Source of the DNA: Sphingorhabdus sp. EL138
Lineage (GTDB): Bacteria > Pseudomonadota > Alphaproteobacteria > Sphingomonadales > Sphingomonadaceae
Direction of reading: 5' to 3'
NCBI RefSeq assembly: GCF_945890115.1
Contig: NZ_CAMDCK010000010.1
Coordinates: forward strand, 33,306 to 97,305
Length of the DNA stretch: 64,000 nucleotides
Below, one piece after another: positions 57,795-61,716 of this stretch; positions within the stretch are counted from its first letter, which is position 1, and the number at the start of each line of letters is the position of its first letter. The translations under genes were made by a program, and so were the position numbers. A model generated the notes under the pieces. The model did no database searches and was not told the origin of the DNA. It was given only the letters and a program-made list of their open reading frames with translations.

Positions 57795-58068
57795 GGGCAG
57801 GAACACTGAAAGCCACGAAGGTGGATTTAAGTGGTCCTGACCCTAAGCGGCGTCGCTAATCCCAAGGTAGAGACGTTTTTAACGTAAACTCTGTCACCCA
57901 TTTGCAGTCATGTCCGGCTGCTATGCGGATCCTCCAACTGGGGGTGGTACCGCAAATAGGTAAAGAGCTAATTAAGCAGTCATGATATTTTCTTTGTTCA
58001 TCGTGCTTGAGCATTGGAAAATCACCAGTTAAGGCGGTGGCGTAACATTGTTTTACTCGGAGGCTGTT

Positions 58069-58203
58069 TTGACAAACGATCATGACCTTGGACCCGCAAA
58101 GGAAACCTATGCGGGTTTCGTCACATTTTTCAAATGGGGCACAATTGTTAGCGCGATTGTAACCGCTATTGTGGTTTTGATCATCGCAAGTCGCGCGGCC
58201 TAA
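58069..58203 (+). CDS. 44-aa single-TM protein resembling aa3-type cytochrome oxidase subunit IV family (COX4_pro_2), leading the pnt operon
   Basis: Below the track cutoff. The TTG start at 58069 is 5 nt after GGAGG (58059-58063). It reads MTNDHDLGPAKETYAGFVTFFKWGTIVSAIVTAIVVLIIASRAA, and its TAA is directly followed by the pntAA ATG. Confidence 0.6.
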   Translation: MTNDHDLGPAKETYAGFVTFFKWGTIVSAIVTAIVVLIIASRAA

Positions 58204-59334
58204 ATGGTGAAAATTGCTGTCCTGAGGGAAACCACCCAAGGCGAAACGCGCGTTTCCGCATCACCTGAAACCGTCAAGAAATTCATCGCGCTTGGCGCGA
58301 CGGTTTCAGTCGAGAATGAAGCAGGCGCAGGGGCGTCCATTGGTGATAGCGATTATGCAAATGCCGGTGCTTCCGTTGGAAATCTGTCATCGGTGCTTAA
58401 AGACGCAGACATTGTTCTGGGTGTTCAAGGACCAGACCCTAAGGCGTTGAAGGGTATGAAGTCCGGCGCTTGGCTTGTGGCGGGGCTTGACCCCTTTGGC
58501 CAGCGGGCACGGGTGGATGCCTATGCTAAGGCTGGCGTAGAGGCGCTGGCGATGGAATTCATGCCGCGCATCACGCGTGCACAGTCGATGGATATATTGT
58601 CGTCGCAGTCGAACCTTTCCGGCTACAAAGCTGTTATTGAGGCGGCGTCGGTCTATGGCCGCGCCTTTCCAATGATGATGACTGCTGCTGGTACGGTCAG
58701 TGCCGCAAAGGCTTTCATCATGGGTGTGGGCGTTGCCGGGCTACAAGCCATTGCTACAGCGCGTCGTTTGGGCGCGCAGGTTTCGGCTACAGACGTGCGT
58801 TCCGCCACGAAGGAACAGATTGAATCCTTGGGTGCAAAAGCGATCTTCGTTGAGAATGTCGCCGGTATCGAAGGCGAGGGCGCTGGCGGTTACGCAACCG
58901 AAATGTCGGACGAATATAAAACAGCGCAAGCCGAATTGGTCTCCGCGCATATCGCCAAGCAGGACATCGTCATTACAACGGCGTTGATTCCGGGCCGTCC
59001 GGCACCGCGTCTGGTGTCCGACGCGCAAATCGCAAGCATGAAGCCAGGCTCCGTCATTTTCGACCTTGCCGTTGCGCAAGGCGGCAATGTCGAAGGGTCG
59101 AAGGCAGATGAGATCGTCATCAAACATGGCGTTAAGATTGTCGGTTACAGCAACACGCCAGCACATTTGGCGGCGGACGCATCGGCGCTCTATGCGCGCA
59201 ACCTGTTCAATTTCCTGTCCGCTTTTTGGGACAAGGAAGCTGGTATGCCGGTTTTGCCTGATGACGACGAAATTACCGCAGCAATTCGCCTGACCAAAGA
59301 TGGCAAGGTCGTGAATGAACGGCTTATGTCGTGA
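58204..59334 (+). CDS. pntAA: NAD(P) transhydrogenase subunit alpha part 1 (dI)
   Basis: 376 aa. Alanine-dehydrogenase/PNT N-terminal domain and Rossmann motif MGVGVAGLQAIATARRLGA. Confidence 0.95.
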   Translation: MVKIAVLRETTQGETRVSASPETVKKFIALGATVSVENEAGAGASIGDSDYANAGASVGNLSSVLKDADIVLGVQGPDPKALKGMKSGAWLVAGLDPFGQRARVDAYAKAGVEALAMEFMPRITRAQSMDILSSQSNLSGYKAVIEAASVYGRAFPMMMTAAGTVSAAKAFIMGVGVAGLQAIATARRLGAQVSATDVRSATKEQIESLGAKAIFVENVAGIEGEGAGGYATEMSDEYKTAQAELVSAHIAKQDIVITTALIPGRPAPRLVSDAQIASMKPGSVIFDLAVAQGGNVEGSKADEIVIKHGVKIVGYSNTPAHLAADASALYARNLFNFLSAFWDKEAGMPVLPDDDEITAAIRLTKDGKVVNERLMS

Positions 59335-59516
59335 TGCAAGGTGACGTCCGGGAAGCTGTATCTCGCCATCGCTGGTGGATAATATTGACTGTGGTTGTGA
59401 TGTTTGGATATTCAGTCAGTAAAGACATGGCGATGCGCGAAAAGGCGGCCGACGCGTTTAACGAGGCTGAGTCCGCCCTGCTCGACGGTAGTGGCCCAGT
59501 TGGGGGAGTTAGCTAG
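59334..59516 (+). CDS. Hypothetical 60-aa single-TM ORF coupled to the pntAA stop
   Basis: TGATG overlap with pntAA and one hydrophobic helix (WWIILTVVVMFGY). I recognise no family. Confidence 0.3.
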   Translation: MQGDVREAVSRHRWWIILTVVVMFGYSVSKDMAMREKAADAFNEAESALLDGSGPVGGVS

Positions 59517-59548
59517 GTGATAGGCATAGGTCTGGCTAGGAACAAAAT

Positions 59549-59999
59549 CCTCCCCTTCTGGGGGCGGTGGCAGCGCGAAGCGCTGACGGAGGGGGCCTGA
59601 AATGGAAGACCACACCCCAGAAGCTCTGATACTCGCTCGCAAATTACGCGGCGAGATGACTCTGCCGGAAGTTTTGCTGTGGCGTTTGCTAAAAGGCAAG
59701 CCGATGGGCTTGAAGTTCCGCAAGCAGCACCCGATCGAAAATTTCGTGTTGGATTTCTACTGCGTCCAAAAGGGCATAGCCATCGAAGTTGATGGCATCG
59801 CCCACGACATGGGCAATCGCCCCGAACGTGATGCCAGTCGGGACGCAAAGCTCCGCGCCTTGGGCATTGAAGTTATTCGTGTCCCTGCCGCCGATGTTTT
59901 GCGCGACGTTGAAAATGCTGCTGATGCCATCGGGCGCCTTTGTACCGATAGACCCCCACCGTCAGCCCTTCGGGCTGCCACCTCCCCCAATGGGGGAGG
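59549..59999. mobile_element. DUF559 endonuclease cassette bounded by 49-nt imperfect inverted repeats, inserted between pntAA and pntAB
   Basis: The left arm (59549-59597) and the reverse complement of the right arm (59951-59999) are identical at 41 of 49 positions. Each arm contains an internal hairpin. Confidence 0.6.
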
Positions 60000-60021
60000 A
60001 TTTACTGGAGCTCACTTATAA
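59602..60021 (+). CDS. DUF559 (Vsr-like fold) endonuclease-domain protein
   Basis: 139 aa. Contains ARKLRGEMTLPEVLLWRLLKG...KFRKQHPIENFVLDFYC...IAIEVDGIAHD...LGIEVIRV. The C-terminal 23 aa are translated from the right inverted repeat. The TAA overlaps the pntAB ATG. Confidence 0.85.
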   Translation: MEDHTPEALILARKLRGEMTLPEVLLWRLLKGKPMGLKFRKQHPIENFVLDFYCVQKGIAIEVDGIAHDMGNRPERDASRDAKLRALGIEVIRVPAADVLRDVENAADAIGRLCTDRPPPSALRAATSPNGGGFTGAHL

Positions 60022-60302
60022 TGGACTTTATTTCAATTTTATCCATCTTCGTGATGGCCTGTTTTGTGGGCTATTATGTCGTCTGGTCAGTAACACCTGC
60101 GCTGCACACGCCGTTGATGGCGGTGACGAACGCGATTTCCTCAGTCATCATCGTCGGTGCGTTGATCGCTGCGGCGGCAGACGGATCAACGACTGCTAAG
60201 TGGCTTGGCCTAATTGCGGTTGCCTTGGCTAGCGTCAATATCTTTGGCGGCTTTGCGGTCACGGCCCGCATGCTGGCGATGTACAAGAAAAAGGAGCGTT
60301 AA
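60021..60302 (+). CDS. pntAB: NAD(P) transhydrogenase subunit alpha part 2 (membrane, dII-a)
   Basis: 93 aa with three TM helices. Contains TPALHTPLMAVTNAISSVIIVGA. Confidence 0.92.
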   Translation: MDFISILSIFVMACFVGYYVVWSVTPALHTPLMAVTNAISSVIIVGALIAAAADGSTTAKWLGLIAVALASVNIFGGFAVTARMLAMYKKKER

Positions 60303-60303
60303 G

Positions 60304-61716
60304 TTGGAACATGTTGCTCCTCCCGCTTGGGTTATGCTCGCTTATTTGATTTCGGGCGTATTCTTCATATCGGCGCTGCGCGGACTATCGTCGCCGGCAA
60401 CATCGCAACGCGGTAACCGCTTCGGCATGGCCGGTATGTTGATTGCCGTGGTTACGACTTTGGTCACGCATGAAGTTGCGTCCTTGCCTGAAATTCTGGG
60501 TGCAATCGCCATTGGCGGCGGCATTGGTTGGGTTACGGCACGCAAGATTGCCATGACGGACATGCCGCAGCTTGTCGCTGCATTCCACTCTTTGGTGGGT
60601 ATGGCCGCAGTGCTCGTTGCTGCCGCCGCCTTCCTCAACCCTGTTGCCTTTGGCATTGTCGACGCAGATGGTCTGATAAACCCCGTCAGCCGCGTTGAAA
60701 TGGGCTTGGGTATCGCCATTGGTGCGATCACCTTTTCAGGGTCAGTCATCGCGTTTCTTAAGCTGGCGGGCAAAATGTCGGGTGCACCTATCCTCTTGCC
60801 GTTGCGCCATGTCATCAACTTGACCACTTTGGCGGCGATCCTTGGCCTTATAGGCTACTTCACTGTTGACCAAAGCCCTTGGATTTTCTGGACCGTTACC
60901 GCGCTGGCTTTCCTCATTGGCTTCTTGCTGATCATTCCCATCGGCGGCGCGGACATGCCCGTCGTGGTATCGATGCTGAACAGCTATTCCGGTTGGGCCG
61001 CCGCTGCCATGGGCTTTACGCTGCATAACACGGCGATGATCATCACCGGCGCATTGGTGGGCTCGTCAGGCGCGATCCTGTCCTACATCATGTGCAAAGC
61101 CATGAACCGCAGCTTCATCAGCGTTATCGCGGGCGGCTTTGGTGCCGAGGCAGCCGCCACGGGCGGCCCAGCCAAAGAGCAGCGCCCATGGAAGCGTGGC
61201 TCAGCCGAAGATGCCGCCTATATGATGCAGCAGGCGGAGAGCGTTATCATCGTTCCTGGCTACGGCATGGCGGTTGCGCAAGCGCAGCATATTTTGCGCG
61301 AAATGGCCGATGTTCTGAAAAAGCAGGGCGTCAGCGTAAAATACGCCATTCACCCTGTCGCGGGGCGGATGCCAGGCCATATGAATGTTTTGCTGGCCGA
61401 AGCGCAGGTGCCTTATGATGAGGTGTTTGAGCTTGAGGACATTAACAGCGAATTTGCGCAAACGGACGTTGCCTTCATCATTGGCGCCAATGACGTGGTC
61501 AATCCAGCCGCAAAAACTGACAAGACATCGCCGATTTACGGGATGCCTGTTTTTGATGTCGACAAAGCAAAGACCGTGTTCTTCATCAAGCGTTCCATGG
61601 GCGGCGTTGGCTATGCGGGCGTCGACAATGACGTGTTCTACATGGATCAAACGATGATGCTTCTCGCCGATGCGAAGAAGATGTGTGAGGACATTGTCAA
61701 AGCATTGCAGCACTAA
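60304..61716 (+). CDS. pntB: NAD(P) transhydrogenase subunit beta
   Basis: The TTG at 60304 is 7 nt after AAGGAG. Membrane domain plus dIII (PGYGMAVAQAQH, GANDVVNPAA). The track ORF starts at 60214 inside pntAB. Confidence 0.92.
   Translation: MEHVAPPAWVMLAYLISGVFFISALRGLSSPATSQRGNRFGMAGMLIAVVTTLVTHEVASLPEILGAIAIGGGIGWVTARKIAMTDMPQLVAAFHSLVGMAAVLVAAAAFLNPVAFGIVDADGLINPVSRVEMGLGIAIGAITFSGSVIAFLKLAGKMSGAPILLPLRHVINLTTLAAILGLIGYFTVDQSPWIFWTVTALAFLIGFLLIIPIGGADMPVVVSMLNSYSGWAAAAMGFTLHNTAMIITGALVGSSGAILSYIMCKAMNRSFISVIAGGFGAEAAATGGPAKEQRPWKRGSAEDAAYMMQQAESVIIVPGYGMAVAQAQHILREMADVLKKQGVSVKYAIHPVAGRMPGHMNVLLAEAQVPYDEVFELEDINSEFAQTDVAFIIGANDVVNPAAKTDKTSPIYGMPVFDVDKAKTVFFIKRSMGGVGYAGVDNDVFYMDQTMMLLADAKKMCEDIVKALQH

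Follow-up and report, generated by a model that had tools for sequence, protein, structure and literature searches.

The window analysed here is a 64,000-nt stretch of the forward strand of Sphingorhabdus sp. EL138 (Alphaproteobacteria, Sphingomonadales; contig NZ_CAMDCK010000010.1, positions 33,306 to 97,305), and it carries a pnt transhydrogenase operon in which a small DUF559 nuclease gene lies between pntAA and pntAB, bracketed by inverted structured repeats. This DNA is also on record as a metagenome contig, ENA ERZ27280302. Upstream of the insertion site, pntAA (transhydrogenase alpha part 1; 58204-59334, plus strand) matches the Pfam families AlaDh_PNT_N and AlaDh_PNT_C as well as positions 2-367 of NCBIfam PRK09424. 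It is followed on the same strand by a variable spacer (59335-59544), in which a 61-aa open reading frame (ORF) is called mechanically at 59331-59516. The cassette itself, from which this spacer is excluded, comprises a type A left arm (59545-59598, plus strand; nhmmer arm profile E=4.9e-13), an ORF of 139 aa for a DUF559, Vsr-fold PD-(D/E)XK nuclease (59602-60021, plus strand; PF04480) and an inverted type A right arm (59950-60003, minus strand; E=6.1e-16), which is read on the plus strand as the tail of the nuclease. A short segment containing the pntAB Shine-Dalgarno motif GGAG (60007-60010) and a stop/start overlap (60019-60023) then leads, within 60007-60023 on the plus strand, into pntAB, which encodes the part of the alpha subunit with four transmembrane segments (60021-60302; PNTB_4TM, PF12769, E=6.9e-37), and pntB (60304-61716; PF02233, E=1.3e-193), both intact and on the plus strand.

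A first-pass annotation of this DNA had proposed that about 690 bp separate pntAA from pntAB, that the insert contains a DUF559 ORF between inverted repeats matching at 41 of 49 positions, that the right repeat is translated as the C-terminal tail of the nuclease, and that the stop codon of the latter overlaps the pntAB ATG without the operon being broken. All of this is borne out. The ORF calls give 686 nt from the pntAA stop to the pntAB start, and the pnt genes are intact by their family matches. The count of 41 positions is right by direct reading; a repeat search of the window extends the two arms to 54 nt each, with 85% complementarity. The right arm encodes the tail RPPPSALRAATSPNGGGF, and the TAA of the DUF559 gene and the ATG of pntAB overlap as TAATG. 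Such an overlap, or direct adjacency of the two genes, is also found in the comparison loci L002, L003 and L005, and the GGAGC that follows the right arm is kept in the window, L002 and L003, L005 being different at this place. Inside the insert, counts of promoter and terminator signals equal the shuffle expectation. Because the insert has no terminator, the pnt operon should stay functional. The left arm, which contains the DUF559 Shine-Dalgarno motif GGAGG (59588-59592, 9 nt 5' of the DUF559 ATG), would provide the ribosome-binding site of the nuclease gene, and the second GGAG together with the TAATG overlap would maintain translation of pntAB.

Each arm consists of an outer hairpin, an inner hairpin and a G-run, the GGAGG just mentioned belonging to the G-run of the left arm. 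The outer hairpin, CCTCCCC-loop-GGGGG(A/C)GG, occupies 59549-59567 in the left arm and 59981-59999 in the right arm. The inner hairpin reads CAGCGC-GAA-GCGCTG on the left (59571-59585) and CAGCCC-TTC-GGGCTG on the right (59963-59977), with the G:C to C:G swap already described in the first-pass annotation. A search of the 64 kb for the 24-nt arm core pattern, with up to 3 mismatches allowed, retrieves the two cassette arms only, and 100 shuffles yield 0 matches. The inverted arms are kept in the orthologous pntAA-DUF559-pntAB cassettes of three relatives. The arm-encoded tail shows synonymous differences at a proportion of 0.18-0.37, versus 0.74-0.84 in the DUF559 core. Synonymous sites of the tail being conserved, constraint there acts on nucleotides, and the arms are therefore constrained at the nucleotide level.

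The swap between the two arms had been taken as a compensatory change and thus as a sign of selection on structure; it is one case of a general pattern. Ninety-four distinct type A arms yield 35 inner-hairpin variants. Over these variants, the fifth pair of the inner stem is G:C in 14, C:G in 19 and A:T in 1, with a mismatch in 1, and the next pair is C:G in 19, G:C in 8 and G:T in 1, again with a mismatch in 1. The mean inner stem of the variants measures 2.0 bp versus 0.44 bp in shuffles, and GNA triloops predominate in the inner hairpins (mostly GCA, GAA and GTA). Covariation preserves the hairpins within each arm, not the pairing of one arm with the other. In the minimum free energy fold of 59530-60025 (-224.5 kcal/mol, z=-7.4), the two arms pair with each other end to end. 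A known RNA family was considered and discarded, a search of Rfam at E values up to 10 having returned chance matches only.

The protein encoded between the arms matches PF04480 over residues 11-112 (84.7 bits for a cut-off of 20.6, E=4.9e-24), and two weaker matches, to MTES_1575 and DUF2726, lie below the cut-offs of those families. No NUMOD, helix-turn-helix (HTH) or other DNA-binding domain was matched in the 139-aa protein by the family profile search. The catalytic core spans approximately residues 1-114 and the tail encoded by the right arm starts at residue 118. Residues D51, E62, D64 and H68, in a D ... E-x-D ... H pattern, are invariant in 29 homologues. Sequence-profile searches retrieve the structures 3HRL (E=1.5e-17) and 3R3P, the catalytic domain of I-Bth0305I (E=1.8e-3). 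With an AlphaFold2 model (predicted local distance difference test score, pLDDT, of 71; below 50 in the arm-encoded tail, which is predicted to be disordered), Foldseek finds 3HRL (E=4.5e-5, target-normalised template modelling score, TM, of 0.76) and 3R3P (target-normalised TM of 0.73-0.74). The nearest characterised structure is the catalytic domain of the homing endonuclease I-Bth0305I (PMC3239194). The ratio of nonsynonymous to synonymous changes in the core (0.08 versus L003 and 0.11 versus L207) is comparable to that of pntAA and shows that purifying selection acts on this core. In all, 1849 homologues of the protein are detectable. Of these 1849, the best 120 are 59-97% identical to it and mostly 134-140 aa long, and therefore most of them include the arm-encoded tail.

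The pntAA|pntAB junction was surveyed in 80 metagenome loci sampled by PntAB alone. The first context look-ups, made with Sphingorhabdus, Erythrobacter and Novosphingobium proteins, had all given the order pntAA-DUF559-pntAB, an order already visible in RefSeq annotation, for instance in S. parapaucimobilis. Ancient conserved synteny alone was dismissed as an explanation, the 80-locus sample containing both empty and otherwise occupied junctions. The statement that pntAA, pntAB and pntB are normally contiguous holds in part: the junction measures only 12-50 nt in many Sphingomonadales-like loci, including L126, L131, L132 and L135, but other small genes frequently fill it. An unoccupied site in a near relative, one of the checks proposed with the first-pass annotation, is provided by L126 (PntAA 92% and PntAB 97% identical), whose junction reads TAA-GGGGGCACC-ATG. 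The sequence immediately beside this junction is nearly identical to that of the window, and the empty junction of the L126 type includes TAAGGGGGCACCATGGACTTC. DUF559 genes fill the pnt junction at a minimum of 19 loci and occupy the same slot in several genera; within the 80-locus sample, seven loci carry DUF559 proteins of other subfamilies, 48-59% identical to that of the window. In Tsuneonella flava (L092, 863-1068), the junction holds a 204-nt arm pair, the spacer of which keeps the first and last few DUF559 codons; this is a natural intermediate between cassette and doublet, produced by internal deletion. The junction therefore has empty, filled and internally deleted alleles.

Genes of other kinds use the same place. 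A HicA/HicB pair lies in the junction in L129, L144, L179 and L185, as well as in L149, where it stands together with DUF559; an MNT/HepT pair is found in L173, a secreted glyoxalase-fold protein in L128, L130, L133, L163 and L172, and bacterial PH-domain proteins in L136 and L148. Further loci have other small ORFs, and Sphingomonas mali has an unrelated insert of 846 nt. The pntAA|pntAB junction is a general insertion hotspot in Sphingomonadales that also hosts toxin-antitoxin pairs. For small selfish genes such as nuclease cassettes, HicAB and MNT-HepT, it is a natural place to land, neutral for the operon. As a separate observation, the gap between pntAA and pntAB of a distant alphaproteobacterial locus (L197) contains a palindromic element of ~250 nt belonging to another arm family, CCCCTCCCC...GGGGAGGGGTCAGGGGTGGGGG, that folds very stably (-220 kcal/mol over 403 nt).

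Comparison with close and more distant relatives indicates how the cassette came to be distributed. The sister-strain contigs L206 and L207 have the same gene arrangement, with a DUF559 protein 96% identical to that of the window. Between the window and L207, differences per 100 nt amount to 11.1 in pntAA, 14.8 in the spacer, 9.4 in pntAB and 12.0 in pntB versus 3.5 in the cassette (binomial P=1.1e-9 for the lower divergence of the cassette relative to its flanks). Likewise, the proportion of synonymous differences (pS) is 0.10 in DUF559 versus 0.39 in pntAA. The tract of low divergence relative to L206 and L207 extends from 59503 to 60012, that is, over the arm-to-arm cassette plus ~40 nt on its left and 10 nt on its right. 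Extra selection on the whole cassette was rejected as the cause of this tract, synonymous sites of the core being saturated versus L002 (pS of 0.77), like those of pntAA. Identities were also compared among 13 filled junctions, using pntAA only; pntB was left aside since L102, L160 and L162 are truncated loci. L102 and L149 are 85% identical in PntAA and 46% in DUF559, and L165 and L171 are 84% and 60% identical, respectively; L149 and L171 are 79% identical in DUF559 and 76% in PntAA. Together, the low divergence of the cassette and these discordant similarities point to horizontal exchange. The cassette of the window is not a recent private insertion, and the phylogeny suggests repeated exchange or replacement at the junction. 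In one of the sister-strain contigs (L206, 3201-4658), no pntB is called after pntAB and only a minus-strand ORF appears; DNA of L206 aligns to the pntB of the window at 79-96% identity up to ~61600, and the missing call is probably due to a frameshift or an assembly error, not to a real loss.

The arms belong to a dispersed repeat family. One genome per species was scanned with the pattern CCTCCCC-N(3-5)-GGGGGAGGTGGCAGC, which has 22 specified bases. At least 120 stretches were retrieved; among the matches listed, almost all come from Sphingomonadales, with a few from Caulobacter and some from oddly labelled metagenome-assembled genomes. Several loci can occur in one genome (at least 6 in S. 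caeni LB-2 and at least 8 in one Sphingomonas metagenome-assembled genome), and most loci are without a nearby DUF559 or pnt gene, both again among the matches listed. Copies of the arms elsewhere, as the first-pass annotation expected, thus exist in many genomes, mostly as gene-less doublets of ~130 nt made of an arm, a variable spacer of 20-50 nt and an inverted arm. When 132 arm matches were tested, most inverted partners delimited a whole element of 113-150 nt, versus 457-478 nt for the pnt cassettes. Sixty-six doublets were characterised in related genomes; those sampled for folding give -78 to -126 kcal/mol. The arms fall into two subtypes, type A (...GGTGGCAGC[stem]GCTGACGGAGGGG) and type B (...GGGGGACC[stem]GGTGGAGGGG). 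Many doublets combine an A with an inverted B, in which case the inner hairpins differ and the outer parts pair, and some are predicted to fold as four-way junctions. The flanks of the doublets follow (A/G)AT|CCTCCCC...GGGGAGG|AT(T)T. Cassette and doublets can be present in one genome, as in S. parapaucimobilis and in the case of L032 with L040 and L123.

Two further observations concern the distribution of the arms. A doublet lies directly 5' of fliP in three Sphingomonadales genomes (L097, 5484-5605; L104, 5762-5883; L111, 1580-1710), where it is read into a 5' extension of the mechanically called fliP ORF; it represents either an old insertion that has been inherited vertically or another hotspot. 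Exact arm matches also occur in contigs of metagenome-assembled genomes labelled Acidobacteria, Actinomycetota, Eubacteriales, Oscillospiraceae or Hydrogenophaga (L031, L042, L052, L067, L073, L074, L078, L083, L094 and L045), which could be misbinned sphingomonad contigs or cases of real transfer. A phage vector was dismissed, 2.9 million viral contigs having yielded only 6 exact matches to the arm.

The association of the arms with DUF559 was approached from both sides. In a census of the ORFs within 200 nt of the arms at 120 arm-selected loci, the only recurrent families are DUF559 (7 loci), the pnt genes and FliP, the recurrence of the latter reflecting the adjoining doublet common to three genomes. 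No transposase is among these recurrent families, and a transposase or REP-associated tyrosine transposase (RAYT) partner was discarded on this ground. DUF559 paralogues unrelated to pnt are embedded in arms in L012, L060, L071 and L109. L012 has the order A(+), gene, A(-), with matching outer loops GCCA/TGGC; L060 and L109 have B(+), gene, A(+), spacer, B(-); in L071, the arm-embedded gene adjoins ligD. An arm-independent sample was formed by 12 DUF559 loci of several phyla, obtained from tblastn matches in a plasmid collection and chosen by protein similarity alone. Structured inverted repeats bracket the gene at 8 of the 12 (S. parapaucimobilis, Sphingobium RAC03, Novosphingobium THN1, Qipengyuania, Picosynechococcus, Pseudanabaena and two Deinococcus), a palindromic doublet is adjacent at 3 (Azospirillum, Sinorhizobium and Photobacterium), and 1 has neither. 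Arm sequences are lineage-specific across this sample, cyanobacteria and Deinococcus included, and CCCC-loop-GGGG hairpins are common to all; the Qipengyuania locus, for instance, has a different arm family. In S. parapaucimobilis, DUF559 lies at the pnt junction between B/B arms, which abut the pntAA stop and provide the pntAB ribosome-binding site. The bracketed gene of Sphingobium sp. RAC03 (L209) lies on the opposite strand inside a leucine-catabolism cluster (isovaleryl-CoA / methylcrotonyl-CoA carboxylase), and those of Deinococcus sp. NW-56 and D. proteolyticus (L213 and L218) lie between hpaB and an oxidoreductase gene in the 4-hydroxyphenylacetate (hpa) cluster. As to the check on whether DUF559 lies between such arms, it does so both at the pnt junction and at unrelated loci; most arm pairs are gene-less.

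Taken together, these data make it rather likely that the segment 59545-60003 is a selfish DUF559 nuclease cassette, homing-like or REPtron-like, set between inverted structured arms of ~55 nt and having gene-less derivatives that resemble MITEs (transposable elements of the miniature inverted-repeat type) or REPINs, the doublets formed by repetitive extragenic palindromic (REP) sequences. The gene-less doublets look like the non-autonomous derivatives of the cassette. The first-pass annotation had already seen here a small MITE-like selfish element encoding a nuclease and no transposase, and this proposal gains support from the arm copies, the DUF559 genes between arms, the empty site and the hairpin covariation. 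One and the same spacer and ORF in all relatives, with no arm copies elsewhere, would have spoken for the opposite; the junction is polymorphic and the arms are dispersed. As to the mechanism of mobility that we infer for the cassette, the nuclease would recognise the structured arms or the unoccupied site and nick or cut there, and host repair or recombination would then copy the cassette or the doublet. Spread into the conserved pnt junction would be homing-like and would make use of the strongly conserved flanks; now and then, new sites would be reached as well.

Several points weigh against a selfish cassette of this kind. We know of no way in which a lone Vsr-fold domain of 139 aa could bring DNA into new sites. 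Target-site duplications reaching 3 nt are absent from the 66 doublets at every offset, and the AT present on both sides in 45 of them is indistinguishable from an extension of the repeat. No arms beyond the cassette pair are found in the window and L001, which together represent ~70 kb of this genome. Most of the arm-containing loci were picked by the arm pattern itself. Finally, the DUF559 and pntAA identities of the 13 filled junctions are weakly correlated (Mantel r=0.23, p=0.033), and the history of the gene is therefore partly vertical and partly one of replacement or exchange at one site.

This weak correlation and the purifying selection on the core, as for a host gene, would also suit a domesticated repair nuclease, the arms being REP-like structural or regulatory elements acting on expression or mRNA stability and the doublets an independent repeat family spread by other means. 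In C. crescentus, the chromosomal role of VsrA, a DUF559 protein, is SOS-linked and connected with cytosine methylation (PMC12907096), and the doublet common to three genomes upstream of fliP indicates that doublets can persist stably. We nevertheless regard a host function of this type as unlikely, since it leaves unexplained why each of the DUF559 paralogues, which come from different subfamilies and phyla, lies between arms specific to its own lineage, why L126 has an empty site, why the cassette is three-fold less diverged than its flanks and why DUF559 is the only gene family enriched beside the arms. Moreover, no cytosine methyltransferase is adjacent to the cassette, the methyltransferase encoded ~3.4 kb upstream matching the N6_N4_Mtase family with a RAMA domain. 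The end-to-end pairing of the arms in the predicted fold raises another question, namely whether the arms are kept for expression of the operon: by pairing in the pnt mRNA they would loop out the nuclease ORF, and thereby mask its ribosome-binding site, generate a site for RNase III-type processing or place the pntAA end beside the pntAB start. The location of the DUF559 Shine-Dalgarno motif within the left arm and the absence of promoter or terminator signals above chance within the insert agree with such an RNA-level role. However, covariation keeps the intra-arm hairpins, the inner hairpin is not the same in the two arms (window, L002 and L003), and the same arms recur at unrelated intergenic sites in the form of gene-less doublets, as well as on both sides of the opposite-strand DUF559 gene of the L209 cluster. 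As the reason for which the arms are kept, this role appears improbable; the pairing could be a side effect of the cassette and not a rival to it. Both the host function and the RNA-level role may coexist with a selfish nuclease cassette.

It can also be asked whether recombination at the inverted repeats serves a programmed inversion of the nuclease gene. In a domain-wide screen, 'DUF559 domain-containing protein' was enriched among predicted targets of programmed inversion (odds ratio 14.3), as was 'Endonuclease domain-containing protein' (odds ratio 9.6; PMC9881135). At the pnt junction, however, the gene is co-oriented with pnt at 19 of 19 DUF559 loci inspected, and no recombinase is found among the neighbours of the cassette in the window and in the context look-ups of three relatives. 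With no inverted allele seen in the loci inspected, an invertible switch was dismissed and is, to our mind, very improbable. Flanking arms that overlap coding sequence probably account for the enrichment of DUF559 among the predicted inversions.

The selfish nuclease cassette shares features with several known systems. In the REPIN-RAYT system (REPtron), REP doublets accompany a single-copy gene located between inverted REPs (PMC3116915; PMC5581495; bioRxiv 10.1101/2021.07.10.451892). As there, a short, structured palindromic repeat stands in inverted orientation on the two sides of a gene and is also dispersed (here in related genomes) as inverted doublets folding into long hairpins, and some copies persist across genomes, here the doublet upstream of fliP, with no clear target duplication. 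In contrast, the enzyme is a Vsr-fold PD-(D/E)XK nuclease (PF04480) instead of a Y1 HUH transposase of the IS200/IS605 type, the arms measure ~55 nt and have two hairpins whereas REPs measure ~20-25 nt, and the gene is patchy and exchanged or replaced at one site whereas that of the REPtron is strictly vertical and single-copy. Free-standing homing endonuclease genes offer another parallel, in particular the Vsr-like homing endonuclease family of which I-Bth0305I is presented as the representative (PMC3239194; Dassa et al., 2009, as cited there). Like them, the cassette occupies a fixed site that exists as empty and filled alleles and is flanked by strongly conserved host genes, has a history discordant with that of the host genes and is less diverged than its flanks; its nuclease has the catalytic fold of I-Bth0305I, according to the 3R3P matches given above (sequence E=1.8e-3, target-normalised TM 0.73). 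Unlike them, it lies in an intergenic junction, with no intron or intein and no NUMOD or HTH domain, and it has structured terminal inverted repeats and dispersed gene-less derivatives.

Correia elements, Rickettsia palindromic elements (RPEs) and elements of the enterobacterial repetitive intergenic consensus (ERIC) type are examples of MITEs, and RPEs are translated as peptide tails. Like MITEs that have an autonomous parent, the doublets described here measure ~110-150 nt and have terminal inverted repeats in common with a longer, gene-bearing form, and an internal-deletion derivative exists at the same locus (L092). Being co-transcribed into mRNAs, and perhaps translated as peptide tails in the manner of RPEs, would be further likenesses. 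They differ from the MITEs of bacteria (reviewed in PMC3184786 and PMC10969869) in that the long form has no DDE or other transposase, only the DUF559 nuclease, in that a target-site duplication, if any, would be AT at most, and in that the arms contain conserved, covarying internal hairpins. With Vsr and VsrA, finally, the nuclease shares its superfamily and catalytic architecture. Vsr, DUF559 and DUF2726 are grouped together (PMC3424549), and VsrA, in which a DUF559 domain is present, causes DNA damage in vivo (PMC12907096). The present protein differs in that no match to the Vsr family proper is reported and no cytosine methyltransferase is linked to it, its gene being embedded in repeats and polymorphic at its site.

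DUF559 is a very large family with hardly any assigned biology, and no link between DUF559 and repeats was found in the searchable literature. The present analysis links the family to cassettes that have structured ends and gene-less hairpin derivatives, occupy their sites patchily and show signs of having been exchanged recently. No description of such a cassette family was found in the searchable literature either; it is apparently undescribed, with a real chance of marking a new class. In a wider and more tentative proposal, to which we would give somewhat less than even chances, DUF559 is the enzyme of an unrecognised class of nuclease-only mobile palindromic elements present in several phyla. 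In these, a Vsr-fold nickase would recognise the folded arms of its own cassette and doublets, and the nick would let host repair or replication copy the element. If true, this would explain the palindromic repeats with G/C runs that are common in Alphaproteobacteria, Deinococcus and cyanobacteria, and would give a function to a large family of 'unknown function'. Should spread indeed be driven by the nuclease, REPIN-like repeat populations would have a second kind of maintaining enzyme, after RAYT transposases, and there would be a route by which a bare nickase can act as a mobile element. At a more practical level, translation of the arms yields conserved tails of low complexity (PPPSALRAATSPxGGG, PLHxxxxGPPPxxxGED), and these contaminate the annotation of proteins.

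The spacer located between pntAA and the left arm (210 nt) has a history of its own. It is missing from L002, L003 and L005 and in other genera, and it changes rapidly between sister strains, with 14.8 differences per 100 nt versus L207 and 31.9 versus L206 as well as indels. The length of its ORF varies accordingly among the three strains (61 aa in the window, 57 aa in L207 and 108 aa in L206), and the 61-aa product has one hydrophobic stretch and no family match in Pfam or NCBIfam; the spacer is probably non-coding. A weak arm-like motif, CCCAGTTGGGGGAG, is present at 59495-59508 and is not significant. A decayed arm (nhmmer E=0.18) and a decayed DUF559 gene (E at or above 0.2 when the six frames are searched with hmmsearch) were both considered as origins of the spacer and dismissed. 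At the equivalent position, L032 and L210 have an intact additional inverted arm.

On the other side of pntAA, a 51-aa ORF located just 5' of the gene (58048-58203) has a weak match to COX4_pro_2, a family resembling subunit IV of bacterial aa3-type cytochrome oxidase. An ORF of 40-49 aa occupies the same position in L002, L003, L005 and S. parapaucimobilis. The COX4_pro_2 Pfam match is also obtained in L002 and L005, and RefSeq gives this name to the ORF of S. parapaucimobilis.

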